64,000 nt of DNA from an uncultured Gammaproteobacteria bacterium (GCA_964560005.1 CAZLKB010000003.1:174951-238950), one strand, 5' to 3'. Numbered from the stretch's first letter, positions 5,440 to 48,657 are shown. A program made the numbers and translations. The notes: generated by a model not told the origin, from the sequence alone.

Positions 5440-7575
<2,136 letters not shown>

Positions 7576-7773: not shown

Positions 7774-8067
7774 ATGGCCGATACAACAAAACTGGCTGGT
7801 ACATTCGAAGCGTGGAGAGGTATTGTTGGAATACCGCCCGAACATTTAGGCGGCGCAATTGTGCGTTGCCAAGAGCTCGGGTTACAACCAAAGACGTGCG
7901 GGTATCAGGACGAGAGGGTTCTTGTTTCTGTTACAATACCCTGTAGCGTCTGCCAAAGTCTGGTTCAAGACTTTACCCTAAAGTGGCTAAGGCCATTCCA
8001 TGCCGCCCTCTATCACGGGGCAAAGGTGTCTCTAATCTGTCCTCCTGACAATTTAACGACGCCATAA
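7774..8067 (+). CDS. Orphan 97-aa protein with 5 Cys (includes CSVC); could instead be a structured RNA
   Basis: ORF between own promoter and own terminator; purine-rich aagaaagaaagag before ATG; no family recognised. Confidence 0.4.
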   Translation: MADTTKLAGTFEAWRGIVGIPPEHLGGAIVRCQELGLQPKTCGYQDERVLVSVTIPCSVCQSLVQDFTLKWLRPFHAALYHGAKVSLICPPDNLTTP

Positions 8068-8091
8068 GTTCCATGATTTTTTGTCAACCAT

Positions 8092-8124
8092 GCCCCGAGT
8101 AGAAAACGAAAGGGGCTTTTTTTT
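8092..8124 (+). terminator. Rho-independent terminator of the 7.7-8.1 kb cassette
   Basis: gcccc ... ggggc stem followed by T8. Confidence 0.75.
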
Positions 8125-8133
8125 CCAAAATTA

Positions 8134-9951
8134 TTATTTTCTATTTTTTATCTTCTCTTTTACTTCTTTAATAAATTCTTCTTTACCAATTTCTCTTGTA
8201 GTCTTCTCTCCCCTATCCCTAACTGCCAATTTCTCGGAGTTCATTTCCCTATCCCCGACTACAAGCATATATGGCACTTTTTCGGCCACGGCTTTTCTGA
8301 TTTTATTGCCCACGGTCTCGTCCGTTTCATCAACTTCCACTCTGATATCTCCTTGCTTGAATTCACCAGCTAATTTTTTACAAAATTCCACATGAGCCGC
8401 GCCCACGGAAACGATTTTCACCTGCACGGGCGACAGCCAAACCGGAAAAGCTCCGGCGTAATGTTCAATCAGAAAGCCGACGAGGCGCTCATGAACCGAT
8501 AACGGCGCACGATGAATACAGTATGGCATTTTTTCCTTACCGTCCTTATCAACATAGATCAAATTGAATTTCTGCGGTTGGGCGAAGTCAAGTTGGACTG
8601 TGCCTAGCGTATATTCTTTACCGATAACCGAATAAATATTAATATCAATTTTTGGCCCGTAAAAAGCCGCTTCGTTCTCTGCTTCGTAAAAATCGGCTTT
8701 TAATTCTTCTAAAACTTCGCGTAGAATCTGTTCATTTTCTTTCCAAGCCTTAGGCAAGTCTACATACTTGCCGCCCAAATCTTTGGGATCATGCTTTGAT
8801 AAGCGGTATTTAACCGTAGTCACACCGAATAATTTATAGTAATATTCATGGAGCTCGATTACTTCTTTAATTTCTGCTTTAACCTGGTCCGGCCGGACAT
8901 AAATATGTGCATCATTCATCATCATCGCTCTAACCCGGAATAAACCCTGCAGTTCTCCGCTTTTTTCGTAGCGATGGCACATGCCGTACTCAGCCAATTT
9001 AAGCGGCAACTCTCTATAACTGCGCGGCTTACTTGCATAAATGGTGTGATGGAACGGGCAATTCATAGGTTTTAAATAGTACTTTTCTCCGTCTATATCC
9101 ATAGGCGAATACATGCTTTCTTTATAATGAGGCAGATGCCCGCTTTTATAAAATAAATCTTCTTTAGTTATAAGCGGCGTAGAGACTCTTTGATAACCTA
9201 GCGCGGCCTCTTTCTCTTTGGCTAATTTTTCCAGTTCGTCGCGTAAAATTGTACCTTTCGGCAGCCAAATCGGCAACCCGGCGCCTATTTCATCACTAAA
9301 AGTAAAAATATCCAGCTCTTTTCCTAATTTCCTATGATCCCTCTTCTCCGCTTCAGCCATCATTTTTAGATAATTATCCAGCTCCTGCCGGGTTAAAAAA
9401 GCTAAACCATAAATTCTGGTAAGCATTTTATTTTTTTCGTCTCCCCGCCAATAAGCTCCAGCCAGCTTGTCCAATTTCCAGCTGCCGTTTTGCACCTGGC
9501 CGCTGGATTTTAAATGCGGGCCGCGGCATAAATCCTCAAACTCACCCAATTTATAATAACTAACCGTTTTTACCTGTGCTGAGCCAGCCGAAGCATCTCC
9601 GGTCTTCTTCAGGTCTTTTACCAGTTCTAGCTTATACTCTTGCCCGCTCTTTTTTTCTCTAGCTAAAGCTTTGGCGACGGTCATTTCCGATTTTTCAAAC
9701 AACAGGTTGGCCTTAATAATATTTTTCATTTCTTCTTCAATTTTCGGTAGATCGCCGTCGGTAATTTTCTCTTTGCCAAAATCAATATCATAGTAAAAAC
9801 CGTTGTCCACTGCCGGACCGATGGCGAATTTCACCTTTGGGTACAATTTTAAAACCGCCGCGGCCATAATGTGCGACATTGAATGCCGCATTAATTCTAG
9901 CTTGTCCACCGAAGCTTTAGCGGAGGTGGGCTTTTCATTTTTTTCTGGCAT
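8134..9951 (-). CDS. thrS: Threonyl-tRNA synthetase
   Basis: Class II core and editing/second-additional-domain motifs (MRHSMSHIMAAA, FRVRAMMMNDAHIY, anticodon-binding C-terminus). Confidence 0.96.
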   Translation of the reverse strand: MPEKNEKPTSAKASVDKLELMRHSMSHIMAAAVLKLYPKVKFAIGPAVDNGFYYDIDFGKEKITDGDLPKIEEEMKNIIKANLLFEKSEMTVAKALAREKKSGQEYKLELVKDLKKTGDASAGSAQVKTVSYYKLGEFEDLCRGPHLKSSGQVQNGSWKLDKLAGAYWRGDEKNKMLTRIYGLAFLTRQELDNYLKMMAEAEKRDHRKLGKELDIFTFSDEIGAGLPIWLPKGTILRDELEKLAKEKEAALGYQRVSTPLITKEDLFYKSGHLPHYKESMYSPMDIDGEKYYLKPMNCPFHHTIYASKPRSYRELPLKLAEYGMCHRYEKSGELQGLFRVRAMMMNDAHIYVRPDQVKAEIKEVIELHEYYYKLFGVTTVKYRLSKHDPKDLGGKYVDLPKAWKENEQILREVLEELKADFYEAENEAAFYGPKIDINIYSVIGKEYTLGTVQLDFAQPQKFNLIYVDKDGKEKMPYCIHRAPLSVHERLVGFLIEHYAGAFPVWLSPVQVKIVSVGAAHVEFCKKLAGEFKQGDIRVEVDETDETVGNKIRKAVAEKVPYMLVVGDREMNSEKLAVRDRGEKTTREIGKEEFIKEVKEKIKNRK

Positions 9952-9960
9952 ATTATCTTA

Positions 9961-10100
9961 TTGTTATTGCGAGGAATTTTACCCCCTTTAACAAAGGCCC
10001 GTCTCGTCCGCCTCGACTACGCCTTTGAGGCGAGACGGGCCTTGGTCTTGCCGAGGCGGAGGGTTAGGGGGATTTAAATCCTTTTACTTCGCATTGATAA
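9961..10100. repeat. Cluster of GC-rich mini-hairpin repeats in the thrS leader
   Basis: ccccctttaacaaagg; palindrome gcccgtctcg...cgagacgggc (9997-10040); gagggttagggggatttaaatcc. Confidence 0.7.
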
Positions 10101-18935: not shown

Positions 18936-18962
18936 TATAAAAGTGTAAAATGAAAAAATCAA

Positions 18963-19075
18963 AATTAAAAATGACAGTTAAAAATGTAAAATTAAATATT
19001 TAAACATTTTAAACTTTACATTGTCATTTTACACTTTGATATTTACATTTTACATTTGTATTATACCCCATTTCT
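18963..19075. repeat. AT-rich word dyad (TGTAAAAT / AAAATGACA family)
   Basis: The 18-mer aaaatgacagttaaaaat is shared with the groEL upstream spacer (30618-30740). Confidence 0.65.
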
Positions 19076-19083
19076 CTCCTCTT

Positions 19084-19114
19084 TGACAAATTCATAAAAA
19101 AACTTTATTATAAT
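19084..19114 (+). promoter_or_regulatory. Candidate promoter of tRNA-Leu
   Basis: TTGACA - 19 nt - TATAAT, about 15 nt before the tRNA 5' end. Confidence 0.5.
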
Positions 19115-19128
19115 ATCAAACATAAATT

Positions 19129-19215
19129 GCCGATGTGGTGAAATTGGTAAACGCGCACGACTCAAAATCGTGTGGCTTAACGGCCTTGTGGGTTCGAGTC
19201 CCACCATCGGCACCA
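19129..19215 (+). tRNA. tRNA-Leu (anticodon CAA), class II with long variable arm, CCA encoded
   Basis: Acceptor GCCGATG/CATCGGC, anticodon arm CACGA-CTCAAAA-TCGTG, variable arm GGC..GCC, T arm GTGGG-TTCGAGT-CCCAC, 3' ACCA. Confidence 0.93.
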
Positions 19216-19216
19216 G

Positions 19217-19245
19217 AAAGCTAGAACCAGGAGGTTTAGCTTTTT
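19217..19245 (+). terminator. Terminator after tRNA-Leu
   Basis: aaagcta ... tagcttt stem plus T-run. Confidence 0.55.
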
Positions 19246-19302
19246 ATGTTCCTTTAATCGGTAAAAAACAATAGTAAACATAAACAAAAGAAAGGCATAG
19301 TA

Positions 19303-20643
19303 ATGAAACTAGGTAATGTATGGTTGGTCGGCAACGACGCCCGGGCTCATGCCATGGCGGAAGCAATCAAAAGGTCAAGCCAAAAGGTGCGGCTTACCGC
19401 CTGGATGGAAAAATCTAATCCCGGCATCAAGGACTTAGCGGACAAGGTGATTATAGGCGATGGCTATGATGAGCTTATAGACCATGCTTCTTTTTATGGC
19501 AATACCGATTTGGCCATTATTAGCCCGGAAAAGCCACTAATGATAGGGGTAGCCGATGACCTTAGGAATTTCGGCGTGTCCACGGTCGGACCCGGACAAA
19601 AACCAGCTCAAATAGAAGGGTCAAAAGCCTGGGCCAGGGGTTTGATGGTCAAACACCATATTCCGGGCATGCCGATATTCGGGGTTTTTAGTAACCTGGA
19701 CGGGCTTGAACAATATCTTGAGGCGAATCAGCCATTCGTACTGAAGCCCGACGGTTTGACCGGCGGCAAGGGGGTTCAGGTCCAAGGCGAACACTTCAAC
19801 ACGGTTGCCGAGGCAATGACAATCTGCCGGGAAATTCTGGAAAAACACGGCGCTGTGGTTGTGGAGGAAAAACTCGAAGGCGAGGAATTTTCTCTGCAAT
19901 GCTTCTGCGACGGTACCAATGTCGTAGCCACGCCCCCGGTTCAGGATCACAAGCGCCGTTTAATCGGCGACCAAGGCTTAAACACCGGCGGTATGGGCTC
20001 GTATTCCTGCGCCAATCAGCTGCTGCCTTTTCTAACATCAGCCGACCTGGAACAAGCCACTGAAATCGTTAGGCAAACCGTTAAAGCCATACGGAAAGAA
20101 ACCGGAGAGCCTTTCCAGGGCTTTCTCTACGGCGGGTTTATGAAAACCGCCCGAGGCATTATGCTGATAGAGTTCAACGCCCGCTTAGGCGACCCGGAGG
20201 CCATTGATGTCCTGTCGCGTCTGGAAACCGATTTTCTGGACATCTGCCGTTCTATCGCCAGTCCGGAGAGATACGGCGGTCTGGACCGAATAGACATCAA
20301 ATTCAAGCCCCGGGCCACGGTAGTAAAATATGTGGTGCCGGTCTATTACGGCATGCCGAGAAATCTATCAACCCCGATCGCGTCCGATCTAATTCAGATC
20401 GGCGACTTAGGGAAAGCGCAACTGTATTATTCTTCCGTAAACGCGGACGCTGCCGGCATCCACCTGACCTCTTCACGCGCTATAGCCGTTCTAGGAACGT
20501 CCGCTGATATCACCGAAGCGGAAAGAATCGCCGAGCAAGGGGCTCGAGCCGTTACCGGCGCCGTGGATCATCGTCCGGACATTGGCAGGGCCGCGCTGAT
20601 CGCTAAACGAGTGCTACACATGAAACAGCTAAGGGGGGAATAA
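19303..20643 (+). CDS. purD: Phosphoribosylamine-glycine ligase (GAR synthetase)
   Basis: ATP-grasp layout; KPDGLTGGKGV, VQDHKRRLIGDQGLNTGGMGSY, IEFNARLGDPE. Confidence 0.9.
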   Translation: MKLGNVWLVGNDARAHAMAEAIKRSSQKVRLTAWMEKSNPGIKDLADKVIIGDGYDELIDHASFYGNTDLAIISPEKPLMIGVADDLRNFGVSTVGPGQKPAQIEGSKAWARGLMVKHHIPGMPIFGVFSNLDGLEQYLEANQPFVLKPDGLTGGKGVQVQGEHFNTVAEAMTICREILEKHGAVVVEEKLEGEEFSLQCFCDGTNVVATPPVQDHKRRLIGDQGLNTGGMGSYSCANQLLPFLTSADLEQATEIVRQTVKAIRKETGEPFQGFLYGGFMKTARGIMLIEFNARLGDPEAIDVLSRLETDFLDICRSIASPERYGGLDRIDIKFKPRATVVKYVVPVYYGMPRNLSTPIASDLIQIGDLGKAQLYYSSVNADAAGIHLTSSRAIAVLGTSADITEAERIAEQGARAVTGAVDHRPDIGRAALIAKRVLHMKQLRGE

Positions 20644-20674
20644 ACTGTCTTACACCATCAACAAAAACAACACG

Positions 20675-20707
20675 GGGTTTCGCGCCAATAAGCGAAATCC
20701 TTTTTTT
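20675..20707 (+). terminator. Terminator after purD
   Basis: gggtttcgc ... gcgaaatcc stem followed by T7. Confidence 0.7.
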
Positions 20708-20782
20708 ATTAAAAAATTCAAATTTTATTACCGTCTTAAAATCACCCGGGGTTTGTGTGACGAGCTAACCGCCAAAGAAAAT

Positions 20783-20800
20783 TGTCATTCCCGGGAAGGC
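20783..20800. repeat. Truncated TGTCAT-type element
   Basis: tgtcattcccgggaaggc; only one half present. Confidence 0.5.
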
Positions 20801-20886
20801 AGTAATATATATATAGTTTGTATATTCCGTATGATACCATTATAACGTCTATAGTGTTACGAAGTCATTGAACCACTTCGTTTTAC

Positions 20887-20916
20887 TTGACAAAATATTA
20901 AAACTATGATTATATA
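20887..20916 (+). promoter_or_regulatory. Candidate promoter for the 62-aa ORF
   Basis: TTGACA - 18 nt - TATATA. Confidence 0.4.
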
Positions 20917-21014
20917 TAATGTTATCCAATTATTAAAATATAATAAATCCCTTCCTAAATCATGTACAAACAAATTAAATATAACAAAAACAACAAGTAA
21001 AGAATGAGAAAATA

Positions 21015-21203
21015 ATGAAAAGAAGATCTTTAATAATCATTGCATTAATCGTTCCCATTGCTGTGGTAACATTCTGGACTGCAGTCCAGAATGCCCTTCA
21101 ACACAAATGGTGGTTATTTGCCTGTAATATCCTAACAATTTTCTGTTCTGTAGGCGTCACAATGCTACAATGGGAAATATATAAAAATACACCTCCCGAC
21201 TAG
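21015..21203 (+). CDS. Orphan 62-aa two-TM membrane peptide
   Basis: Two hydrophobic helices; own promoter-like and terminator signals; AT-rich unlike the flanking pur genes. Confidence 0.45.
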   Translation: MKRRSLIIIALIVPIAVVTFWTAVQNALQHKWWLFACNILTIFCSVGVTMLQWEIYKNTPPD

Positions 21204-21232
21204 AAGGTGTCGAGGAATGCGCCTTGCCAAAT

Positions 21233-21267
21233 CCCGCTATGTCGAAATAAAACTGGCGGGTTTTTTT
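21233..21267 (+). terminator. Terminator after the 62-aa ORF
   Basis: cccgc ... gcggg stem followed by T7. Confidence 0.6.
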
Positions 21268-21316
21268 ATTTGCCTTTTCCGCGCTTTTATACTAATGTTT
21301 AATTAAACAAAAGGAG

Positions 21317-21346
21317 GACCGAACCCAAATAAGGTTTGGTCTTTTT
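21317..21346 (+). terminator. Second stem-loop plus T-run (terminator or attenuator) upstream of the purB unit
   Basis: gaccgaacc ... ggtttggtc stem followed by T5. Confidence 0.4.
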
Positions 21347-21417
21347 GGCCTTTAACAACCCCTAAAATGGGGATAATAGCAAAACAACAAACACCAAAAC
21401 AGAAAGAAAGTAATAAT

Positions 21418-21639
21418 ATGAAAAATGACAATGAAGCGTTTTTACTGTGGATTCAGCGCAAGCATAACTCGGATAGTTTCTGCTCCGAGCTGGTGGAAAC
21501 TTGCAAGATAGAATTTGCCAAGCATGAGGGGCTGGACAACGACGGACGCAGTGCAATTTACCGGACTCAGCGCGAAAAAATCCACACCAAACACCACGCG
21601 AGATTAAAAAAGCATTTGCGAGTCAGATGCAATTCGTAA
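21418..21639 (+). CDS. Orphan 73-aa basic protein
   Basis: ATG preceded by the A/C-rich leader acaccaaaacagaaagaaagtaataat; 40 bp before purB; no family recognised. Confidence 0.4.
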   Translation: MKNDNEAFLLWIQRKHNSDSFCSELVETCKIEFAKHEGLDNDGRSAIYRTQREKIHTKHHARLKKHLRVRCNS

Positions 21640-21679
21640 ATCAGCGACAAAAATCAAAACCAAAAAGAAAGAGAAGAAT

Positions 21680-23305
21680 ATGAAAACTGCATATAAACAC
21701 ACTGAAAAACTATTAAATAGCATGGTTGAAGGCTACGGAACAAATCTTTTACCTTTAGGGGATTTATTTAGGCTAGAACTGTCGAACGAAGATAGACAAA
21801 GACAGAATTCCCCCATTCCGGCGCTTGGTAGATACCATAAAAGTGTCGCTTTCATGGAGAATGTGACCTCGGCCCGGTCAATCGGCAAAAAGAGATTCAT
21901 GGTGCTGATCGCCTACTTCATCGCTTTGAGCAAGCTGATGGCTGGCTACAACGGAAAATTCCGCCGGGTCAGCGGTAAATTAACCAAGGTTGAAATCAAA
22001 TACCTTAAACGGCTCGGCACCGAACCAGAAGAAATCAAAATGGCCGAACAAGTTGAAAAAGTTTCCGAACACGATACGGCGGCCGCCGGAGATTATTTAA
22101 AACTCCGCATCCTTTACGATTATGTGGTCGGCGGCAAGAAAATCCTGGCCAATTTGTGCCGGAAAATCGAAGCCTTCCATTACGCCGCTACCTCCGAAGA
22201 CATTATGAGCGTTGTCTTCGGTCTAATCGCCAATGAGCTGGTTTATGTGCATTTTATGCGCAAGCTCATGGACTTCTGCGACCACATGGTAAGATTCGTG
22301 GAAACATTTCCGCAGCTACTGCTTATGCCGGAGTTAACCCATGATCAGTTCGCCGAACCAACCACCTACGGCAAAAAGGTCGCCAACGCCCTTGAGGCAA
22401 TTAATACGACAATCCATGACCATCTGCTTGAAGGGGAATCTTTCCGAACCTTTACCGCTAAATTCAATGGCGGGATCGGCGGTTTTGTTACTCACTGCGC
22501 CGCCTATCCGGACATTGCTTGGTGGTCTTTTTCCAGAAGGTTTGTCACCGGCTTCGGCCTGCATCATGAAATGATGACTTACCAATGCGTTCCCTACGCC
22601 CGGGAAGCCCAAATCCTCCGGACAATTATGACCATCTTCGATCAAATCGTGAAAATACTGGAGGATTTCATCAAGCTGGCTAGCGCTCCGGCTCATTTCT
22701 TCCAGAAAGAAAAGAAACCTGGCGCCAAAGGATCGTCCTTGATGCCTAAGGTTAACCTCTGGCAGATTGAGGGCGCAATCGTCATGCTGGAAAAAACGCA
22801 GCACAACCTGGCCTTTCTGGCGGAGAAACTGCAAAAATTCCCGCACGCGGGCAACATGAAGAGGTCATTTCTACTCCGCGATATGGGGAATGATTTCATG
22901 CCCGCTTTCATTGCCTTCGACAGAATTATGAAGGAGATGAAGATCTGCATTGCGAACCCGGAACGAATCGAAGCCGCTTTCGCGGCATCTCCGGGTATGG
23001 CCGGCAGTGCCATGCAAACGGTTCTGAAGCGAGAGGGCGCGTCCGGTGACGCTTACCGAATTGTTCAAAAAGCAGCCGTTAATCCAGACGGCAGTTACAA
23101 CAACTCAGAGCAATTTCGCCTCATCTTAGAAAGGGGGATGGACGAAATGAAATTGCGACGAAAGTTAAGGAATGAACTCCTTGGCCTCCTGGATTACAAG
23201 CGCTTAGCCGAACCTAGCCGCCAAATGGCAGAAAAATGCCTGGCTCGGTTGAAGAGAAGCTTCGCGGATTACAGGAAACGCACCAACACAATAAAAACCT
23301 TCTAA
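21680..23305 (+). CDS. purB: Adenylosuccinate lyase, long variant (541 aa)
   Basis: Aligns by eye with E. coli-type PurB: ALGRY, SEHDTAAAGDYL, ATSEDI, LTHDQFAEPTTYGKK, FNGGIGGFVTHCAAYPDIAW, signature loop GSSLMPKVN. Confidence 0.86.
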   Translation: MKTAYKHTEKLLNSMVEGYGTNLLPLGDLFRLELSNEDRQRQNSPIPALGRYHKSVAFMENVTSARSIGKKRFMVLIAYFIALSKLMAGYNGKFRRVSGKLTKVEIKYLKRLGTEPEEIKMAEQVEKVSEHDTAAAGDYLKLRILYDYVVGGKKILANLCRKIEAFHYAATSEDIMSVVFGLIANELVYVHFMRKLMDFCDHMVRFVETFPQLLLMPELTHDQFAEPTTYGKKVANALEAINTTIHDHLLEGESFRTFTAKFNGGIGGFVTHCAAYPDIAWWSFSRRFVTGFGLHHEMMTYQCVPYAREAQILRTIMTIFDQIVKILEDFIKLASAPAHFFQKEKKPGAKGSSLMPKVNLWQIEGAIVMLEKTQHNLAFLAEKLQKFPHAGNMKRSFLLRDMGNDFMPAFIAFDRIMKEMKICIANPERIEAAFAASPGMAGSAMQTVLKREGASGDAYRIVQKAAVNPDGSYNNSEQFRLILERGMDEMKLRRKLRNELLGLLDYKRLAEPSRQMAEKCLARLKRSFADYRKRTNTIKTF

Positions 23306-23342
23306 GGAAGGCAAACAACAAATCAAAAACAAAAAAAACACA

Positions 23343-23873
23343 ATGAAAAAAAGAATCGTCGCAATCATTATTGGATCAAAAAGTGACGCACCGCAATGCC
23401 TAGAGGGTGCATTGTGGCTTCAAGAGCAACAGACTAAGGGCTTAGTCCATGTCTACCGAGCATATGTCAAAAGCACGCACAGGCACAAAAAAAAGCTGCT
23501 TTGGCTTCTCGACAGTCTTCACTATGCCGACCCGGAAAAAAAGGTTGATGTCATTATCGCCGGCGCAGGCAAGGCTGCGGCTCTCCCGGGAGACATTGAC
23601 GCCTATCTAAGAAACGAACTCGGCGACACCAGTATAAAGGTTGTCGGCGTGGCCTTCAAAAGCAAAACCAAAGGGGACGACGAGGCTGCGGCCTTAAGCA
23701 TCACCAAGGTTCCCGGCACTCAGGTAACTTACGCCGGCCAGGGAGAGGCGGGATTCTTAAAGGCCTGCAAAATGGCCTTAGACGACTCGCTACCGGAAAT
23801 CCATCTAGCGGAAATTCCGCCCAGCCTAGACCTGAACCTTGCTCAATTCATCGAGCTGGCAGAGCAACAGTAG
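23343..23873 (+). CDS. PurE-family protein (AIR carboxylase / N5-CAIR mutase fold) with atypical motifs
   Basis: IIIGSKSDAPQ, VKSTHRHK (canonical SAHRTP), DVIIAGAGKAAALPG (canonical AAHLPG). Confidence 0.72.
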   Translation: MKKRIVAIIIGSKSDAPQCLEGALWLQEQQTKGLVHVYRAYVKSTHRHKKKLLWLLDSLHYADPEKKVDVIIAGAGKAAALPGDIDAYLRNELGDTSIKVVGVAFKSKTKGDDEAAALSITKVPGTQVTYAGQGEAGFLKACKMALDDSLPEIHLAEIPPSLDLNLAQFIELAEQQ

Positions 23874-23955
23874 TAAACACCTCCACGGCTCGCCTGAGTG
23901 AAACAAGCCCGGGCGAGCCGGCAAATCAAAAACACAAACCAAAGAAAGAAAATAA

Positions 23956-24867
23956 ATGAAAACAAAACCAATGCTTAAATGCAATTTCCCGTTGCTGGGA
24001 ACGCCCCATCAAGGCAAGGTCAGAGACATGTTCGACCTGGTTCCCTACATGCTCATGGTCGCTACCGACCGTATTTCGGCCTTTGATGTGATCTTGCCCA
24101 ACGGCATCCCGCGCAAAGGCGAAGTCTTAACCCAATTGTCGGCGCTTTGGCTGAAACAGCTGGCCGGAGTCATGCCCAACCAGTTGGTTTCCTGCGACCC
24201 GCGCGAATACCCGAAAATCTGCCGTCCATATAGGCAGGAATTGGATGGCCGCAGTATGCTGGTCCATAAAGCCATACCATTTGAGGTAGAGTGCGTTGTC
24301 CGCGGATACCTGGCCGGCTCGAGCTGGAAATCGTATCAGAACGACAAAACCATCTGCGGTATTCAGCTGCCACCCTGGCTCAAGGAATCGGATAAATTAC
24401 CTGAACCGATATTCACTCCTGCGACCAAGGCTCCGGGCGGCGCTCACGACGAGAATATCAACTTTGAGCGCATGATAAGAATAGTCGGCTGGAGGAACGC
24501 AACTCTTCTGAAACTGGCAAGCCTGGTGCTGTACGACCGCGCCCAAAGACTGGCCGAACCGGCCGGCATTATCATCGCCGACACCAAGTTTGAGTTCGGA
24601 CTTGGCCCTGACGGCGAGATCATCTTAATCGACGAAGTTCTGACCCCGGATTCATCCCGTTTCTGGCCGGCTGATCAATACAGGCCCGGCGGTCCCCAGT
24701 CGAGCTTTGATAAACAGTTCGTCCGAGACTACCTGGAAGAGGTCGGCTGGAACAAACGGCCGCCCGCGCCAAAACTACCGGAGCGAGTCGTTCGAAAAAC
24801 CAGCGAAAAATACCTAGAAGCCTACGAACGCTTAGCCAAGGTACTGGCATATCACCAGGAGGAATAA
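23956..24867 (+). CDS. purC: SAICAR synthetase (long form)
   Basis: GKVRDMFD, VATDRISAFDVILPNGIPRKG, IIADTKFEFG, LIDEVLTPDSSRFW. Confidence 0.93.
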   Translation: MKTKPMLKCNFPLLGTPHQGKVRDMFDLVPYMLMVATDRISAFDVILPNGIPRKGEVLTQLSALWLKQLAGVMPNQLVSCDPREYPKICRPYRQELDGRSMLVHKAIPFEVECVVRGYLAGSSWKSYQNDKTICGIQLPPWLKESDKLPEPIFTPATKAPGGAHDENINFERMIRIVGWRNATLLKLASLVLYDRAQRLAEPAGIIIADTKFEFGLGPDGEIILIDEVLTPDSSRFWPADQYRPGGPQSSFDKQFVRDYLEEVGWNKRPPAPKLPERVVRKTSEKYLEAYERLAKVLAYHQEE

Positions 24868-24873
24868 ACACAA

Positions 24874-24909
24874 AGGACACTAAGCTTAAAAGCTCGTGTC
24901 CTTTTTTTT
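24874..24909 (+). terminator. Terminator closing the pur block
   Basis: aggacac ... gtgtcct stem followed by T7. Confidence 0.8.
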
Positions 24910-24921
24910 ATGAAAAAATTT

Positions 24922-27189
24922 TTATTTACTTAACTCCCCTATCTTTTTCTCCATCTCCGCATTCCCCGGATTCAATTCCAAAACTTTCTGATAATATTTT
25001 AAAGCTTCTTCAGTATCGCCCTTGGCCTCATAAGCGACGGCTAAACTATATAAGCTGTTGGAATGCTTTGGAGAAATTGTTAAAACCAGCTTAAACCTGA
25101 CTATGGCTTTATCAATTTCTTTATGATTAAAATAATATCTGCCCAGTTCATAATAAACCTCCACGCTCTCAACCTCGCCCGCCAGCTCATTCAATAGCGC
25201 CAGGGCTTGATTATCTTTTTTATTGCTTAAATAAATTTTAGCCAAGCCGAATTTAGCTTCATAATAATCGCTCTTTAGCTCTAAAGCCCTATTATAATAT
25301 TTTTCCGCATTAACCGGGTCGTTATTGTTGGCATAGGCTTTAGCCAGCTCGGCGGCCAAGACCGGATTAGTCGGTTCAAGCGAAACGGCTCGGCTGAAAT
25401 ATTTAACCGCCCAAGCCTCGCTGCCTTGAGTTAACGGCCTGATATCGCGGTATATCATGCCCAAGGTTTCCTGGGGTAGGACGGAGTTAGGCGCTAAAAC
25501 CTCGGCTTGCCCGGCTAGCGCCAAGGCCTGGGCGATATTCGCTTGGATATTCGCGTTATCTCTTTGTTCAATCGGTTTTAGAGCTTCCGCCTTAGTTTTA
25601 TTTAAATAAAAATCGGCTAGGCTTATCCTAAAATTATAGCGGTAAGGATTTAATTTAACCGCGGCCGTTAAGTTGGCCTGGCGATTCAGCCTTTTTGAGG
25701 CGAAAATATCGGCGATAAAAAATCTGATTTCAAAAACCAAGAGTACGGCCCAAAGCGCGATTAAAAAAAATAAAACTAAATAAAATAGCCAATGGAATAT
25801 ATCGATTTTCTTTAAATCAATTATTTTTTCTTTAAAAACAACCTGATTCCGGCTTTGCCAAAAGGCGATGATTAAGCTTAAACAGAACCAAAAAATAAAA
25901 TTTAAAACCGTGTTGGTAAAAGAAAATAACCGGGCAAAAAATATTAAAATAAAAACGATCAACAGGCCGGCGATTAGATAATAATCTTGATTAGATAAGG
26001 CCGCCGGCAGGCCTTTCAGATGCTGCCTGATTAAAACGATATTTAAATAAATCACTAAGCTGATTATTAAAAAATAGCTTAGCGCGGTCAAACCGCCGGC
26101 GGTTGCCAGCATCTCTAAAAAATTTGAACTGCTTTTATCAAACCTAATCTGCCAAAAAGCGCTTTGGTTTAATTCGGCCGGACGGTAAAGAGAAAAGCCG
26201 TAGGCAAATGTTCCCGGGCCGCTGCCAAGCGCCGGATACTGCTTAACCGCTTCTTCGGTGATCGCAAGAGATTGATCGTGTGTCAATAAAATTTCTCCGG
26301 GTAAATCCTGTCCCGTGGCTCTTTTTACTAAATTTACATTAGGCCAAGCCAGCATAACCACCGCTATTAGCAATAAAATCGCGGGAATTAACAGCTGGTA
26401 ATTTAAGATCGCCTTAAGCTTGCCTCTTTGATCCAGCCAGTAGAAAAAAATTATTAAAATAGCGCCCAGACCGAGTAGAGCCCAAATTAAATAATAATTA
26501 ATGAACAGTAAAATTATTAAAAAAATCGCTAAAACTGCGCTGAAAAAAATATGGCTATGCTTTTTAAGACTATTTTGAGTTAAAAAATCAGCCAAGCCGA
26601 TTGAGACGAAGGCTAAAAAAATTCCCAAGGCGATGAGCGAACTGCCGGCTAAATTAAATAATCCGGCTGAAAAAAAGTTTACCCATCTATCCGCGGCCGC
26701 GCTTAGCCAGCCGAAGACGGAGAAAAGAAATACAACGGCAACGACCGCCGAAGAATAAAACAATATTTTTAATAAATCAATGATTTTTTTTGTGCTGTCG
26801 GCGATCTCGCTGTTAATTATTAAAAAATAAAGGATTACCAGGCTGAATAAACCCAGCCAGGCATCGGTTGAGCGTCCGAAATAACCGAAAAAAGACGAGA
26901 AACGGTCAAGGCTGAGCCAAGAAGCGGCTAGAGCCAATAATAAAAAAATTAAGACCGGTAAATTCAACGGATTAATTTTCAATTTTAATTGTCCCGGCGC
27001 CAAGGCTTTAATCAGCCAAAGGAAAAGCGCCAGAGGCATAGTGAGCCAAAGCAAAAACTGCTTATTAAACTCAAAATATTCACTCGTCCAAGGTAAAAAA
27101 AACAAAGGCAGGAGAAAAATTGTCGCCTTTATTAATATTACAACAGATTTATCTAATTTATTGATAATCTTATCTGCCATCACATTCAA
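24922..27189 (-). CDS. Polytopic membrane protein, O-antigen ligase/polymerase-like, with C-terminal TPR repeats
   Basis: More than 12 TM helices then repeated A..YY..A...P TPR-like units (AEKYYNRALELKSDYYEA, ALKYYQKVLELNPGNAE). Confidence 0.7.
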   Translation of the reverse strand: MNVMADKIINKLDKSVVILIKATIFLLPLFFLPWTSEYFEFNKQFLLWLTMPLALFLWLIKALAPGQLKLKINPLNLPVLIFLLLALAASWLSLDRFSSFFGYFGRSTDAWLGLFSLVILYFLIINSEIADSTKKIIDLLKILFYSSAVVAVVFLFSVFGWLSAAADRWVNFFSAGLFNLAGSSLIALGIFLAFVSIGLADFLTQNSLKKHSHIFFSAVLAIFLIILLFINYYLIWALLGLGAILIIFFYWLDQRGKLKAILNYQLLIPAILLLIAVVMLAWPNVNLVKRATGQDLPGEILLTHDQSLAITEEAVKQYPALGSGPGTFAYGFSLYRPAELNQSAFWQIRFDKSSSNFLEMLATAGGLTALSYFLIISLVIYLNIVLIRQHLKGLPAALSNQDYYLIAGLLIVFILIFFARLFSFTNTVLNFIFWFCLSLIIAFWQSRNQVVFKEKIIDLKKIDIFHWLFYLVLFFLIALWAVLLVFEIRFFIADIFASKRLNRQANLTAAVKLNPYRYNFRISLADFYLNKTKAEALKPIEQRDNANIQANIAQALALAGQAEVLAPNSVLPQETLGMIYRDIRPLTQGSEAWAVKYFSRAVSLEPTNPVLAAELAKAYANNNDPVNAEKYYNRALELKSDYYEAKFGLAKIYLSNKKDNQALALLNELAGEVESVEVYYELGRYYFNHKEIDKAIVRFKLVLTISPKHSNSLYSLAVAYEAKGDTEEALKYYQKVLELNPGNAEMEKKIGELSK

Positions 27190-42372: not shown

Positions 42373-42398
42373 TATCATTCCCACGAAGGCGGGAATCC
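42373..42398. repeat. TGTCAT-like element (TATCAT variant) overlapping the 3' end of the upstream CDS
   Basis: tatcattcccacgaaggcgggaatcc; its complement encodes GFPPSWE plus the stop codon. Confidence 0.75.
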
Positions 42399-43445
42399 AG
42401 AATTTATTTTTTTTTTCAAAATTTTCACTACCCCATTATCCGCGTCCACTTCCACCAAGTCGCCGTCATGCAAAACCTTAGTGGCAATTTTGGTGCCGAT
42501 GATGCAGGGCTTTTTAAGCTCACGCGCAACAATGGCCGCATGACAGGTAATACCACCTTCATCAGTGACAAAGGCGGCGGCTTTTCTCATTGCTGATATA
42601 AAATCTGGCGTTGTCATTGAACTAACGAGAATTTCACCACTCTTAATTTTAAAAATATCTTTATTCTTTAAAATAATTTTGACAACACCACGTGCTTTCC
42701 CTCTATAAGCAACCTGTCCAGTAAAATGGTCTATTTCTGATAAATTTTGCTCTCCCTCAAGAATAAAATTGAATTTTTTCTCCAGTTTTTTTAAATCATT
42801 GACGGTTATCAACTCATCTCCATTTAAAACTAACGTTTTCTTTTTTCTGACTTTTAGCTGGCTTTTAGTTGGGATTAAATTTTTTCTAATCTCATTTAAA
42901 CTTATAAAACTGGAAAGTTCACCTAGCTCGGGATAAATTTTTCTAAGAGCTGTTTCAATTGAGTGGAAAGCGTCATATTCCACTTTATCTATTTTGCGTC
43001 TTATCCCTATCATAAAATTTCTTTCTGGTTCGCTGTAGCTCATGTCGTTCGGAATAAACAAAGAGGCATAAATCAGCAACCAAAAATCTCCTAGTACCTC
43101 CGTAAAGACTAATAAATCCTTTCTTGTTGGGTGAGGGTTGGCATAAAATTTCTCCAGTACCGGAATCTGACGCAAGTGTTTCTCGGAAAAAATTTTCAAA
43201 AATTTTTGTTTTTCGGCCATCTTATCTTCAAAAATTTTTCGTAATTCTTTATCAAGCGGATTCTCATTTCTGTATGCTTTAGCGAGGCCACCTTCAATTA
43301 AAAAAATGTAGCGCGGGAAAGTCTTAATTTTCTTTCCAAAAAATTCCTTATATCTCCCGCCCCATACTTGGCAGAGAATTAAAGGAAAATCTCTGACAAA
43401 GGCCTTCGGAATAATTATCGGTTTTCTCTTGAACATAATAGTCAA
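42375..43445 (-). CDS. PEP-utilising-enzyme mobile (phosphohistidine swivel) domain protein with an unknown N-terminal domain
   Basis: C-terminus LVSSMTTPDFISAMRKAAAFVTDEGGITCHAAIVARELKKPCIIG matches the swivel domain of PpsA/PPDK-type enzymes. Confidence 0.75.
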   Translation of the reverse strand: MTIMFKRKPIIIPKAFVRDFPLILCQVWGGRYKEFFGKKIKTFPRYIFLIEGGLAKAYRNENPLDKELRKIFEDKMAEKQKFLKIFSEKHLRQIPVLEKFYANPHPTRKDLLVFTEVLGDFWLLIYASLFIPNDMSYSEPERNFMIGIRRKIDKVEYDAFHSIETALRKIYPELGELSSFISLNEIRKNLIPTKSQLKVRKKKTLVLNGDELITVNDLKKLEKKFNFILEGEQNLSEIDHFTGQVAYRGKARGVVKIILKNKDIFKIKSGEILVSSMTTPDFISAMRKAAAFVTDEGGITCHAAIVARELKKPCIIGTKIATKVLHDGDLVEVDADNGVVKILKKKINSGFPPSWE

Positions 43446-43506: not shown

Positions 43507-44691
43507 CTACCTCCCCTTATTCACGTGCACGACTTTGGCCGGCGGGAAGCCGTTGAAGTAAGTTGAGGAAGCGATGGAGTAGGCGCCGATATTCTCGGCG
43601 TATAAGAGGTCGTGGATTTGCAAGTCAATGGGCAGTTCGTCGGAGGTGGAAATAGTGTCAAAAGCATCGCAGGTTGGGCCGAAAGTGGAGCAAACCTTAG
43701 TCTCGCCGTCTTTAAAAGCGTGGAGCGGATTAAATTGATGGTCGAAAACCTGGCCGGAAAAAGTATGATAAACGCCGTCATTCAGGTAATAGCAGGTTTT
43801 GCCGTCGCGAATGGCCTTGCCCACGATTTTTGTTACCACCACGCAGGCGGTCGCTACCATAAACCGGCCAGGTTCGGCAATAATCTGGACATTGTCATTT
43901 TTGAATAAACGCTTAAATTCCGAATTCAGCTTTTTAGCCAAGCTGGCGAACGATTGCACCTCGACCGTGTACTGCGCCGGAAAACCGCCGCCGATGTCCA
44001 AAACTTTTTTCCTCTTGCCTTCTTTATCTATAAAACCGATCGGATATTTTCTTAAATCCGCTTCTTTAAAAATTGACGAAGCTAAAGTTAAGGATTGGAC
44101 ATAGTTGTCAAAATTACAGCATTGGCTACCCACGTGAAAACTGATACCTTCCACGCCCAGCCCGTAACTTATGGCTTCGGCGATTAAATCCACGGCTTCG
44201 CCCGGATGAGCGCCGAACTTTGACGACAGTTCTACCACCGAGCCGGTATTGGGCACGCGGATGCGCAAGACTAAACCGGCGTCCGGCGCGTGTTCTTTTA
44301 TTTTTTTCAGTTCTTCGGAATTATCAAAAGTAACCAAAGGTTTATATGGATTCAATTCTTTCAACGTTTCCACCGGCTTAATGGTATTGGCGTAAATTAT
44401 TTTGTCCCAGATAAAATCCTGCCGCTCTTTAGCCGGTAAATTCTTAATATTTTCGTGCACGGTCATAAACTCGGGAAAAGACGCCACGTCGAAGCTCGCA
44501 CCCATATCATACATGGTTTTTACGATTTCCGGATTGGAATTGGCCTTGATGGCGAAATAAATTTGCACATCCGGCAATCTTTTTTTGAACTCGCGGTAAT
44601 TTTCCCTGATTTTATCATGGTCAATAATGAATATCGGCGTGCCATGCTTGGCCGCCAAGTTCTGCAATAATTTTTTTTGTTCTTGGTTCAT
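43507..44691 (-). CDS. PLP-dependent ornithine/diaminopimelate-type decarboxylase (alanine-racemase fold), likely ornithine decarboxylase
   Basis: YFAIKANSNPEIV (PLP-Lys), DIGGGFP, GPTCDAFD, EPGRFMVA motifs. Confidence 0.86.
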   Translation of the reverse strand: MNQEQKKLLQNLAAKHGTPIFIIDHDKIRENYREFKKRLPDVQIYFAIKANSNPEIVKTMYDMGASFDVASFPEFMTVHENIKNLPAKERQDFIWDKIIYANTIKPVETLKELNPYKPLVTFDNSEELKKIKEHAPDAGLVLRIRVPNTGSVVELSSKFGAHPGEAVDLIAEAISYGLGVEGISFHVGSQCCNFDNYVQSLTLASSIFKEADLRKYPIGFIDKEGKRKKVLDIGGGFPAQYTVEVQSFASLAKKLNSEFKRLFKNDNVQIIAEPGRFMVATACVVVTKIVGKAIRDGKTCYYLNDGVYHTFSGQVFDHQFNPLHAFKDGETKVCSTFGPTCDAFDTISTSDELPIDLQIHDLLYAENIGAYSIASSTYFNGFPPAKVVHVNKGR

Positions 44692-44700
44692 ATTATTTTT

Positions 44701-44842
44701 GCCCCTTTTAACAAAGGGGGTTAGGGGGATTTAAACCCTCCTTCTAAAGGAGGGTTAGGGAGGTTTCCGCCGGAGGCGGATCCGCCTTTGGCGGAAAATT
44801 AACATTGATTAACCCCCTTAATCCCCCTTTATAAGGGGGACG
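44701..44842. repeat. Array of GC-rich mini-hairpin repeats
   Basis: cccctttaacaaaggggg, ccctccttctaaaggaggg, tccgccggaggcgga, atccgcctttggcgga and cccccttaatccccctttataaggggga in one spacer. Confidence 0.85.
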
Positions 44843-44851
44843 GTAATACTT

Positions 44852-46300
44852 TTAATCTATAAACAAAAAGCTCTCAAATTGCCAAGGATCGGGGTTAGGC
44901 TTAGCGGCCGGATTTTCTTTAAAATAAACTACGCGATTTTTCAGCGGAGTCCAGTCGGAGCGAGTAGAAATAAAATTACCTAAATAAGGTTTAGCAATGT
45001 CTAAAACAAAATCATGGGGCAGGTCATCGGGCAGATTCAGCCCTTTTCTCGGATTTTCCAGCATCCATAAAATCGCCGCTATGACGCCGGCCGCTACCTG
45101 TAAAGTGGTGGCGTTTTGGCCCGGCACCAATTCCCTAGTCTGGTCAATGGATAGGGCGCTCCCCGTCCACCAGCTCTTATAAGCATGCCCCATTATTAAA
45201 GCACCCAAAGTATCGGTGCCGGTAGTGATTTCGTCCTGTAAAATTCTTAATTTGGGCGGTAAAACATAATTCAAGCCCCTTAATTCGCAAAGCGAGGACA
45301 AAGTTTCATGACAAGGCATGTAAGCGTAATGCACGGTCGGCCGATAAACGGCCTTTCCAGCCTCCCAGACAGTAAGCCGGTCAGAGATGCCAAAGGCTTC
45401 GCCATGGCGAATTACCATGCCCACGATTTCTTCGTTCGGTATCCAGCTCCTTACCCAGGTGTTAATTCCCATCTGCGCCAAAAAAATCTGATTTTTCGGC
45501 CCATAAGACGGCAGATGCGCTAAAGCCGGCAAGGTTTTCTCGTGCGTACCCCAGCCCATTTCAGCCGGCGCAGTGCCTTCTTCCCTTAAACCTTCAATAC
45601 TCCAAGTGCCCACGAATTCGTTAACTTCTTTCGGCCGATTGGTAATCTGCGTGTCCCGCTCGCTGCAGTGGATTACTTTAACGCCTAATTTCTCCGCCAG
45701 CCTGGGGAAGTCTCTTTTTTTTATGTAATCATATAATTCTTCTTCCTCCGCCTGACTGACTTTTTTTTCTTTAATTAAGCTTACGGCGATATCAATCAAC
45801 CCTTGCTTGACAAAATGTGAAATCAGACCCGGGTTAGCGCCATGGTCTACCACTGCCGTGGGTGCGTCATGCCAATTTTTCGACATTTCCCGAAGCTTCA
45901 TCTGCCTAAAGTAAAGCGATTTTTCAAAAGGAGTCTCTTTAAAAACTCCGCCCAAAGAATCCCAAACCTCAACCGAAGCGTTAACATATAAAACATTATG
46001 GTCGTGGCACCAGCCGATAATGTCATCGGCGCCGATATTCCAAGCCAAATCCACGACCAGCCCGCCGTCGTCAACATATTTAGCCAGAGTTTTACCTAAA
46101 TCTTCTTTGGTAATCCTCTCTAAAGCAAAGTTCAAGCCATTATCCGTGTACTTTTTTAAAGCTCTGGTCTTGTCTTCAAAATCAATAATCGTAATATTTT
46201 TTAGCGGCGCTTCAATTTTTTCTAAAAAGATCGGCAAGGTGCATTGTGCCACCGCGCCATAGCCGATGATAAGAATTTTTTCTGAGAATTGTTTTTTCAT
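44852..46300 (-). CDS. hss: Homospermidine synthase
   Basis: Collinear by eye with bacterial HSS: IIGYGAVAQCTLP, HGANPGLISHFVKQ, ERDTQ, YRPTVHYAY, GQNATTLQVAAGV, DPWQF; start at Met12. Confidence 0.9.
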   Translation of the reverse strand: MKKQFSEKILIIGYGAVAQCTLPIFLEKIEAPLKNITIIDFEDKTRALKKYTDNGLNFALERITKEDLGKTLAKYVDDGGLVVDLAWNIGADDIIGWCHDHNVLYVNASVEVWDSLGGVFKETPFEKSLYFRQMKLREMSKNWHDAPTAVVDHGANPGLISHFVKQGLIDIAVSLIKEKKVSQAEEEELYDYIKKRDFPRLAEKLGVKVIHCSERDTQITNRPKEVNEFVGTWSIEGLREEGTAPAEMGWGTHEKTLPALAHLPSYGPKNQIFLAQMGINTWVRSWIPNEEIVGMVIRHGEAFGISDRLTVWEAGKAVYRPTVHYAYMPCHETLSSLCELRGLNYVLPPKLRILQDEITTGTDTLGALIMGHAYKSWWTGSALSIDQTRELVPGQNATTLQVAAGVIAAILWMLENPRKGLNLPDDLPHDFVLDIAKPYLGNFISTRSDWTPLKNRVVYFKENPAAKPNPDPWQFESFLFID

Positions 46301-46432
46301 AAATTTAAAATTTAAAATAAAGTATTTACTCATGCCTTTAATTAAATTATAGCTTGTATTAATAAAAAAGCAAGCAGAAAATCAAATTTTCTACTCTAAA
46401 ATAACCGAAAAAAATGTTTGTGAAAAAAGCTA

Positions 46433-47718: not shown

Positions 47719-48657
47719 CTACAACGTCGTAATCGGCCTACTTTGCGTAATATAAAATTTATTTTTCACCAAGGCCCATTCAATATCCTGCGGCTTCTTA
47801 TAATGAAGTTCTATATTTTTACAAATTTTCGCCAGCTCCACGATTTGCTTGCCGGTTAATTTCTGCTTGCCGCCCTGCTTAACCGACAGCTTTTTATGTA
47901 CATTACCACTCTTGACACCATGCGTTATCATCATGCTTTGCTCCGACACATTGATATCTAAAATGGAAAAATCGTTTTTATGGATAACATAAGTATCCGG
48001 CGTGATCTGGCCAGAAACGATAGCCTCGCCTAACCCGAGTCCTGCTTCTATCACCATTTGATTATAATCCTTGGTTACCGGATGAACGGTGAAGCAAATG
48101 CCGGACACTTCGGACTGCACCATGGTCTGAACGACTACGGCCACGGACACTGACTTCTTGTTCATTTTTTGTTCAAAGCGATAGAAAATCGCCCGCGGCG
48201 TAAATAAAGACGACCAGCAAAGCTGGACATTTTTTAAAACTTGTTTTTCGGTAGTATTTAAATAGGTTTCCAGTTGCCCGGCCCAAGCCGCGGCGGAACT
48301 ATCTTCCGCGGTGGCCGACGATCGCACAGCCACATATTTGGCTTTTAACTTTTTAAAATTGTCCATTACTTCCGCGGCAATATCTTTCGGCATCTTGGCT
48401 TTTAAAATCATGGCGCGAATTTCATTTGACGACCGATCCACGGAATTTATGTCCTGATGATTGACTTTTTTTAAAGTCGCTTCAATTTCCATATCCAAAT
48501 CGGTTTCTTCTAAAAATCTATCAAAAGCCGAAGCTAAAACCACAAAACCGGGCGGCACCGGTATACCCGCCTTTGTCATTTCGCCTAAAGAAGCGCCCTT
48601 GCCGCCGGCTATTCGCACATCTTTTTTCGTTAGTTGTTTAAAGGTTTTGGTGAACAT
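47719..48657 (-). CDS. PEP/pyruvate-binding (ATP-grasp) N-terminal domain protein of the PpsA/PPDK family
   Basis: AGGKGASLGEM, VAVRSSATAEDS, PQDIEWAL...QSRPIT as in the PpsA N-terminal domain; ends after this domain. Confidence 0.85.
   Translation of the reverse strand: MFTKTFKQLTKKDVRIAGGKGASLGEMTKAGIPVPPGFVVLASAFDRFLEETDLDMEIEATLKKVNHQDINSVDRSSNEIRAMILKAKMPKDIAAEVMDNFKKLKAKYVAVRSSATAEDSSAAAWAGQLETYLNTTEKQVLKNVQLCWSSLFTPRAIFYRFEQKMNKKSVSVAVVVQTMVQSEVSGICFTVHPVTKDYNQMVIEAGLGLGEAIVSGQITPDTYVIHKNDFSILDINVSEQSMMITHGVKSGNVHKKLSVKQGGKQKLTGKQIVELAKICKNIELHYKKPQDIEWALVKNKFYITQSRPITTL

Follow-up and report, generated by a model that had tools for sequence, protein, structure and literature searches.

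The 64,000-nucleotide stretch analysed here (the window; CAZLKB010000003.1:174951-238950 of GCA_964560005.1) carries on its + strand a tRNA-Leu(CAA) gene followed in order by purD, a gene for a divergent lyase in the purB position (lyase'), a gene for a divergent PurE (purE'), purC and a strong terminator. We think it probable, on balance, that this block is a conserved, mosaic and functional purine locus of a de novo pathway. The locus has stood at the same chromosomal site, between parB-parA-tRNA-Leu and TPR-AI-2E transporter-GroEL, since before this sublineage of Patescibacteria (candidate phyla radiation, CPR) diversified. Its main interest lies in apparently CPR-specific variants of PurB and PurE that curated models do not recognise, in the repeated replacement of its middle genes in situ, and in a leader shared by its two transcription units.

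The same site was compared in four relatives with GroEL about 90% identical to that of the window. In L089 (GCA_030650415.1) the order is parB, parA, a GIY-YIG open reading frame (ORF), tRNA-Leu(CAA), PurD, PurB, PurE', PurC, TPR, AI-2E and GroEL, and its DnaE, GroEL and ParA are 85%, 92% and 93% identical to those of the window. L172, a Logan contig, has PDT, PurD, PurB, PurE', PurC and AI-2E. L171 (GCA_028707005.1) runs parA, tRNA-Leu, a 166 aa ORF, a lyase, PurE, PurC, TPR, AI-2E and GroEL, and L087 (JGI) runs dnaE, parB, parA, tRNA-Leu, a 197 aa ORF, lyase', PurC, TPR, AI-2E and GroEL. The tRNA-Leu(CAA) adjoins the block in L089 (where it is 94% identical to the window copy), L171 and L087, whereas the short L172 contig yielded no such gene. 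Flanks, tRNA, purD, leader and purC are collinear with those of the relatives at 68-85% nucleotide identity. A collinear block at the same site in all of these genomes must be older than their divergence.

A preliminary description of this DNA had placed it in a CPR-type genome, and rightly so: the window derives from a CPR/Patescibacteria chromosome, its GroEL falls in one 90% cluster with that of Parcubacteria GW2011_GWC2_42_12, and those homologues of its proteins that carry a name are from Falkowbacteria or Patescibacteria. The four gene identities given there were also correct, PurD and PurC scoring over the cut-offs of their models and lyase' and PurE' agreeing in motifs and folds. The genes had been taken for a single + strand block ending at a strong terminator. 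That terminator is present, but purD has a terminator of its own and the block is not a single unit.

As their scores against curated families show, PurD and PurC are canonical enzymes. PurD, the glycinamide ribonucleotide (GAR) synthetase (446 aa; 19303..20643, +), scores 349.8 bits against TIGR00877, where the equivalog cut-off is 288, with domain matches to GARS_A (the ATP-grasp domain, 178 bits), GARS_N (61 bits) and, weakly, GARS_C (21 bits). PurC, the succinylaminoimidazolecarboxamide ribonucleotide (SAICAR) synthetase (303 aa; 23956..24867, +), exceeds two such cut-offs, with 401 bits against NF010568 (cut-off 251) and 222 bits against TIGR00081 (cut-off 190). The PurD proteins that L089 and L172 encode at this site share 63-64% identity with the window PurD, the range among the relatives being 63-68%, and PurC is 60-70% identical to the same-site PurC of L087, L089, L171 and L172, with 58-70% among the relatives. 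The clusters nearest the window PurD include fusions of PurF with PurD, PurD with PurN, PurC with PurD and PurD with a HAD phosphatase (P0285, P0288, P0290, P0291, P0295, P0300). Only one of the ten nearest PurD clusters is named, from a Pacearchaeota (DPANN) archaeon at 44% identity, and no donor can be deduced.

The affinities of PurC reach outside the CPR. The window protein has 58-63% identity with its counterparts in Verrucomicrobiota, Thermodesulfatator, Proteobacteria and Bacteroidota, and only 26-42% with those of the other CPR loci L088, L090 and L002. In a neighbour-joining tree of PurC the sublineage forms one clade, the sister group of the non-CPR sequences, and the other CPR proteins stand well apart from it. 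A metagenome scan with PurC returned, among the matches listed, loci with no match to lyase' or PurE', which are probably non-CPR.

The lyase' protein (541 aa; 21680..23305, +; Pfam Lyase_1, 50 bits) has an adenylosuccinate lyase (ASL) model, NF006764, as its top NCBIfam match. Its family comprises about 102 clusters at 35-79% identity, beyond which E-values fall from 1e-85 to 1e-28 where canonical PurB begins, and the named members of the family are all CPR (Falkowbacteria, Doudnabacteria, Gribaldobacteria, Berkelbacteria and Patescibacteria). A scan of genome contigs with the lyase' alignment gave at least three CPR loci among the matches listed. Across 32 lyase' sequences the ASL motifs GRY, HDTAAA, TSED, TH.Q..EP with the catalytic His, and the serine loop GSSxMP(x)KxN are kept, HDTAAA being common to lyase' and canonical PurB. 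The substrate (ribose-phosphate) contacts R51, Y52, S396 and R400 do not vary, and their counterparts in solved ASL structures are the GRY and S..R motifs. The AlphaFold2 model has a mean predicted local distance difference test score (pLDDT) of 90.9, and its top 50 matches in the PDB are all ASL, the best being E. coli PurB with a target-normalised TM score of 0.87; within the fumarase/aspartase superfamily the fold is thus nearest to ASL and not to fumarase, argininosuccinate lyase or CMLE. Compared with the E. coli-type ASL (PRK09285/NF006764; PDB 2ptq, 2ptr, 3gzh), lyase' is alike in fold, has an ASL_C-type C-terminal domain, and shares GRY, HD, TSED, the catalytic His (TH..P) and the serine loop, but it is only 20-30% identical, has 541 aa rather than about 456 with longer N- and C-termini, appears to be restricted to CPR and includes a subclade with a deletion in the serine loop.

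The gene neighbourhood points the same way as the residues and the fold. Across CPR, lyase' and PurE' recurrently adjoin PurC and PurL, and in the Berkelbacteria locus L005 lyase' adjoins purL and purQ. From its catalytic residues, predicted fold and gene position we infer that lyase' is a divergent, CPR-specific adenylosuccinate/SAICAR lyase that does the job of PurB. The NCBI names are less specific, 'lyase family protein' for lyase' and 'AIR carboxylase family protein' for PurE', and no description of a CPR-specific PurB or PurE was found in the literature.

At another lyase' locus, L009 (Patescibacteria), the gene before lyase' (7981-9513) encodes a 510-aa protein with weak matches to orotidine monophosphate (OMP) decarboxylase and orotate phosphoribosyltransferase. 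It was considered as a PurF and rejected, being a PyrF/PyrE-like fusion instead. Its sequence suggests that genes for de novo pyrimidine synthesis lie beside lyase' in that genome.

The PurE' protein (176 aa; 23343..23873, +; Pfam AIRC 49 bits, cut-off 30) represents a smaller family, of which about 30 clusters were found. It keeps the GSKSD and STHR motifs, and all 30 sequences compared have S44, H46 and R47. The His of the STHR motif, which reads SAHR in class I PurE, is named as the key catalytic residue (PMC10484210). In most of the family the 70s loop reads AAHLPG or ANHLTG and so keeps its His; a seven-residue insertion, DAYLRxxL, following this loop is specific to the family, and there is a conserved QC motif. 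The AlphaFold2 model (pLDDT 96.6) has only class I PurE among its best PDB matches, with a TM score of 0.72 and a root-mean-square deviation of about 2 A. Set against class I PurE/N5-CAIR mutase (A. aceti, E. coli, L. pneumophila; PDB 2fw1, 1qcz, 6o55; CAIR, carboxyaminoimidazole ribonucleotide), PurE' has the same fold, GSxSD loop and SAHR-type motif but is about 30% identical, carries the seven-residue insertion, and in the window protein has lost the 70s-loop His to Ala. It also differs in that no PurK partner was seen near it, and its substrate could be either N5-CAIR or aminoimidazole ribonucleotide (AIR) carboxylated directly. In L173, PurE' and PurC adjoin a large PurL. The catalytic residues, predicted fold and gene position together suggest that PurE' is a divergent class-I-like enzyme doing the job of PurE. 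The public gene calls start later than ours, giving a PurE' of 153 aa (P0130) that lacks the GSKSD phosphate loop and a PurC of 298 aa (P0161).

The middle of the block differs from one relative to the next. The lyase slot holds lyase' in the window and in L087 (70% identical to each other), a canonical PurB in L089 (8645-9940; TIGR00928 377 bits, cut-off 326), another canonical PurB in L172 (2819-4147; 385 bits against the same model, 36% identical to the L089 PurB), and a fourth form of 490 aa in L171 (2975-4447), 21-28% identical to the other three. These four forms, two of which are canonical PurB, are mutually unrelated at 21-36% identity. The PurE slot holds PurE' in the window, L089 and L172, a canonical PurE in L171 (4499-5014; TIGR01162 175 bits, cut-off 149.6), and nothing in L087. 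As relatives hold a canonical PurB or PurE in these very slots, lyase' and PurE' would take the corresponding roles, which their residues and folds also suggest. The pattern supports exchange that is old and has recurred while the locus itself stayed in place, the middle genes having been replaced in situ several times. The swapping of unrelated purB and purE genes in a conserved operon offers a clean natural case of functional equivalence recognised by position, and it shows how reduced genomes can refresh their metabolic genes by transfer.

Base composition also sets the four genes apart. They take ranks 1 to 4 of 47 window genes for G+C content at third codon positions (GC3), with values of 0.576-0.638 against a window mean of 0.493 (standard deviation 0.062), purC having the maximum of 0.638. 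The chance of four named genes filling the top four ranks is 1 in 178,365. Expression level alone does not explain this, since the highly expressed groEL, atpA and atpD have lower values. The pur genes of L089 have GC3 of 0.59-0.71, compared with 0.36-0.51 for the flanking genes other than one unannotated 203-aa ORF (0.60), and PurC of L087 is likewise high. Gene transfer into an ancestor probably brought in the locus or re-seeded it.

A conserved non-coding stretch of about 130 nt lies upstream of the lyase gene. It is 73-76% identical in the window, L089, L087, L171 and L172 and recognisable in L088, and it is kept whichever form of lyase comes next. Its layout is a promoter-like site, (A)AGGAGG, a 9-bp hairpin (GNCCAAAC/GUUUGGNC), a U-run and CCUUWAAAA. 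The window has two copies of this leader on the + strand. Copy 1 (19209..19263), between the tRNA and purD, has the hairpin AGCUAGAAC/GUUUAGCU, the U-run and CCUUUAA, and scores 42.3 bits (E 1.7e-07) with a covariance model, R1, at a fold energy of -14.6 kcal/mol. Copy 2 (21307..21362), before lyase', has AAGGAGG, the hairpin GACCGAAC/GUUUGGUC, the U-run and CCUUUAA, and scores 63.4 bits (E 1.5e-12). With filters off, R1 finds exactly these two sites in the whole window, upstream of purD and of lyase', the next best score being 14.5 bits; the leader pattern occurs twice against an expectation of 0.03. Preceding copy 2 is the promoter-like site TTGCCT-17-TAATGT (21270..21298, +), conserved upstream of the lyase gene in five relatives in an alignment of the upstream regions from the window, L089, L087, L088, L171 and L172.

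The second leader copy before purD is present in the window, L089 and L172, and in L087 it follows the tRNA. Sites in the relatives are at 6909-6961 and 8532-8586 in L089, 1200-1254 and 2714-2768 in L172 (where both copies, promoter included, are nearly identical), 2855-2909 in L171, 9046-9101 and 9882-9939 in L087, and 9882-9931 in L088. Over ten instances 92% of the cells pair and four of the nine pairs show compensatory change, a level of pairing and covariation reached by none of 500 shuffles and by no slid control. L003, a distant CPR locus, has a weaker site with this layout ahead of lyase' (9918-9987). An RNA rather than a DNA palindrome is favoured because several leader pairs are kept only as G.U.

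The occurrence of the same leader before both units suggests that they are regulated together, and we regard it as a candidate attenuator, predicted from sequence conservation and pairing, that would couple the two pur units. It resembles the promoter-proximal terminator attenuators of nucleotide-synthesis operons, of which the B. subtilis pyrG leader and pur operon leader are examples, in that a stable hairpin and U-run come after a promoter-like site and before the first pur gene, an arrangement repeated ahead of two pur units. Its length of about 45 nt, however, leaves no room for any known riboswitch aptamer, and no Rfam family matches it. A known riboswitch upstream of the pur genes was sought and rejected, as Rfam at E <= 1 matched the tRNA only. 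A PurR-type DNA operator was also considered and is less likely than an RNA hairpin, since several instances pair only through G.U wobbles; a PurBox-like word, CCGAAC, occurs in the window leader copy only. If the leader proves to be regulatory, it would join a short list of cis-regulatory elements described from CPR.

Taken together, the block would consist of genuine de novo purine-synthesis genes, long settled at this chromosomal site, with lyase', PurE' and PurC forming a route from AIR or N5-CAIR through CAIR and SAICAR to aminoimidazolecarboxamide ribonucleotide (AICAR). The remaining genes (purF, purN/T, purL, purM, purH and possibly purK) would most likely lie elsewhere in the genome. 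The bacterial de novo pathway of E. coli and B. subtilis uses the same four families, PurE, PurC and PurB acting in consecutive steps and PurD at step 2; here, unlike there, four of about 11 genes are at the locus, in two units beside a tRNA, and the PurB and PurE members are highly divergent. Phosphoribosylamine (PRA), the substrate of PurD, is too unstable for salvage. An intact and conserved PurD thus implies the steps upstream and downstream of it. The PurD fusions, the position of lyase' beside purL and purQ in L005 and that of PurE' and PurC beside PurL in L173 also favour completeness, and we lean towards a complete purine pathway in this genome. The preliminary description had raised a shunt that would use salvaged intermediates; nothing positive was found in its favour, and the intact PurD argues for the upstream steps.

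Several results weigh against a functional de novo locus. As the preliminary description had observed, the window holds no other pur gene: purF, purN/T, purL, purM, purK and purH were all absent from its 47 ORFs of at least 120 aa when these were scanned against Pfam, 11 of the 47 having no match. PurK was seen neither in the window nor at any PurE' locus examined. According to a 2026 preprint (10.64898/2026.06.21.733656), 93% of Patescibacteriota genomes are without de novo nucleotide synthesis, and the genes are phylogenetically scattered. Both divergent proteins fall below the equivalog cut-offs, lyase' with 163.7 bits against 446 for NF006764 and 109.8 against 326 for TIGR00928, PurE' with 40.7 against 149.6 for TIGR01162. 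The window subclade of lyase', which includes L087, has a catalytic serine loop one residue shorter (MP-KVN against MPNKSN), and the 70s loop of the window PurE' is AAALPG, with Ala for the class I His. At this site L087 lacks PurD and PurE' and L171 lacks PurD, and because the locus has been eroded in these two the window copy could itself be on the way out. Finally, the promoter-like site ahead of the candidate attenuator was predicted by eye.

The missing genes, the absence of the pathway from most Patescibacteria and the losses in L087 and L171 would all fit a decaying remnant or partial pathway without purF, purN, purL, purM and purH, in which the lyase alone is active, converting adenylosuccinate to AMP in salvage, while PurD, PurE' and PurC are idle or being lost. 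It would fit too that the pur genes are 53-70% identical between relatives, compared with 85-93% for ParA, GroEL and DnaE. We nevertheless consider a remnant rather unlikely. All four ORFs are intact with their catalytic motifs kept, PurD and PurC pass strict equivalog cut-offs, the four-gene arrangement is preserved in L089 and L172, the conserved leader is kept before both units, and relatives of lyase' and PurE' lie beside PurL. The low scores, the loop deletion and the His to Ala change could alternatively mean that lyase' and PurE' are paralogues repurposed for a non-purine role, for example other succinyl- or carboxy-transfer chemistry, as could the gap that separates each of the two families from canonical sequences and the insertion and QC motif of PurE'. 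Such repurposing, which the preliminary description had also raised and for which no positive evidence emerged, seems quite improbable given that canonical PurB and PurE fill the same operon slots in relatives, that the adjacency to PurC and PurL recurs across CPR, that no variation is seen in the ASL-specific GRY and S..R or in the catalytic Ser and His, and that fold searches returned solely ASL for the one protein and solely class I PurE for the other.

A recent island integrated at the tRNA-Leu, with the whole block as one mobile, tRNA-targeting module, is largely refuted by the conserved synteny, and we judge it very improbable. Like tRNA-targeted genomic islands, the block lies beside a tRNA and has an atypical base composition, its GC3 topping the window (GC content had been called indecisive in the preliminary description, and GC3 proved the more informative measure). 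The tRNA site also shows signs of recombination in relatives, namely a tRNA remnant in L171 and a GIY-YIG ORF in L089. Unlike such islands, the block has no integrase and no attachment-site repeat, and stands at the same site in all relatives examined. No ORF of the block or its flanks has an integrase or recombinase domain, no repeats flank the block within 18950-25150, and a search of the window for the tRNA 3' end (25-mer, up to 3 mismatches) matched the tRNA itself and nothing else. The preliminary description had reported no integrase and no such repeat, and both statements were borne out by the domain scan and the 25-mer search; the partial tRNA-Leu repeat beyond 24909, for which it had proposed a search, was not found in the window. 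The collinearity of block, flanks and tRNA in four relatives, the monophyly of their PurC and the division into two transcription units with a common, lineage-conserved leader likewise speak against a recent arrival. Of the suggestion that this was a horizontally acquired module at a tRNA, the recent island therefore falls, as four relatives share the site, and an older exchange at the locus stands, on the GC3 values, the PurC similarities and the swapped slots.

A more specific version of the functional locus can be put forward tentatively, and as a whole we think it unlikely. It would be a streamlined, lineage-specific purine synthesis in which PurE' carboxylates AIR directly, making PurK unnecessary, lyase' serves as a CPR-specific PurB and the leader is a new purine-responsive attenuator. 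If it were true, surveys based on equivalogs or KEGG Orthology would miss lyase' and PurE' and may under-count purine-making CPR genomes, as these two proteins are so divergent that model-based pathway surveys could pass over them.

The usual description of the CPR/Patescibacteria is that they cannot make nucleotides. Here one CPR sublineage keeps a maintained and apparently regulated purine gene set, and if its pathway is complete the organism belongs to the minority of Patescibacteria with de novo purines. Current views are refined by this and none is overturned, the locus being mostly ordinary with moderately interesting extras.

The block consists of two transcription units, tRNA-purD and lyase'-purE'-purC, delimited by their terminators, with predicted promoters. 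The first begins with a promoter-like site, TTGACA-17-TATTAT (19083..19111, +), predicted by a consensus scan at 11 of 12 positions upstream of the tRNA-Leu(CAA) gene (19129..19215, +; ARAGORN, and Rfam RF00005 with 60.3 bits). This predicted promoter probably also drives purD by read-through past the tRNA. The unit ends at an intrinsic terminator (20674..20708, +) with a hairpin at 20674-20701, a 10 bp stem followed by U7 (-15.2 kcal/mol, z = -4.2). The second unit ends at an intrinsic terminator (24872..24912, +) with a hairpin at 24872-24904 followed by U8 (-15.4 kcal/mol, z = -4.8).

The spacer between purD and lyase' is about 1 kb, AT-rich (36% GC) and holds small ORFs. One of these, listed at 21015..21203 (+), encodes a small hydrophobic protein of 62 aa with no Pfam or NCBIfam match and no counterpart in L089 or L087, whose spacer is short; a weak hairpin and U-run follow it at 21229-21268. 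Another (21367..21639, +) encodes a small basic protein of 90 aa from 21367 or 73 aa from the ATG at 21418. It is wedged between leader copy 2 and the start of lyase' in the window only, with no family match (Pfam, NCBIfam) and no counterpart in relatives; in L087, L088, L089, L171 and L172 the lyase starts about 55-85 nt past the leader hairpin. A remnant of a canonical purB in the spacer was looked for and rejected, tblastn with the L089 PurB giving no match there. An A/C-rich, G-poor stretch beginning CAAATCAAAAACA lies just upstream of the lyase', purE' and purC starts (21650-21683, 23319-23352 and 23922-23955; repeat family D1), with further members of the family at 20971-21013 and 21380-21413. 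Possibly it plays a part in translation initiation in this genome.

Recombination has occurred at the tRNA site in this lineage. L171 has a different tRNA-Leu(CAA) at 1558-1642 and, about 50 nt on, a 5'-truncated 57-nt remnant of the window-type tRNA-Leu (1696-1752, 95% identical), interrupted by an insert. In L089 the ORF between parA and tRNA-Leu (6511-6747) encodes a 78-aa GIY-YIG protein at 26% GC, is absent from the window, and may be a homing-endonuclease-like mobile gene.

The rest of the window includes prfA/prmC, ftsW, gyrB, thrS, dnaE, parB/parA, groEL, an F-type ATP synthase operon, metG, typA and comEC. A PEP-utilising (phosphoenolpyruvate) mobile domain (42375-43445, 356 aa) and a pyruvate phosphate dikinase (PPDK) N-terminal nucleotide-binding domain (47719-48657, 312 aa) are encoded by separate genes about 4 kb apart, and together might form a PEP synthase or PPDK-like enzyme in split form. 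Between them a decarboxylase of the ornithine/diaminopimelate/arginine type (43507-44691) adjoins a protein of the saccharopine-dehydrogenase family (44852-46333). The carboxy(nor)spermidine route to polyamines typically pairs genes of these two kinds, and such a polyamine-type gene pair at 43507-46333 is worth noting in a reduced genome.

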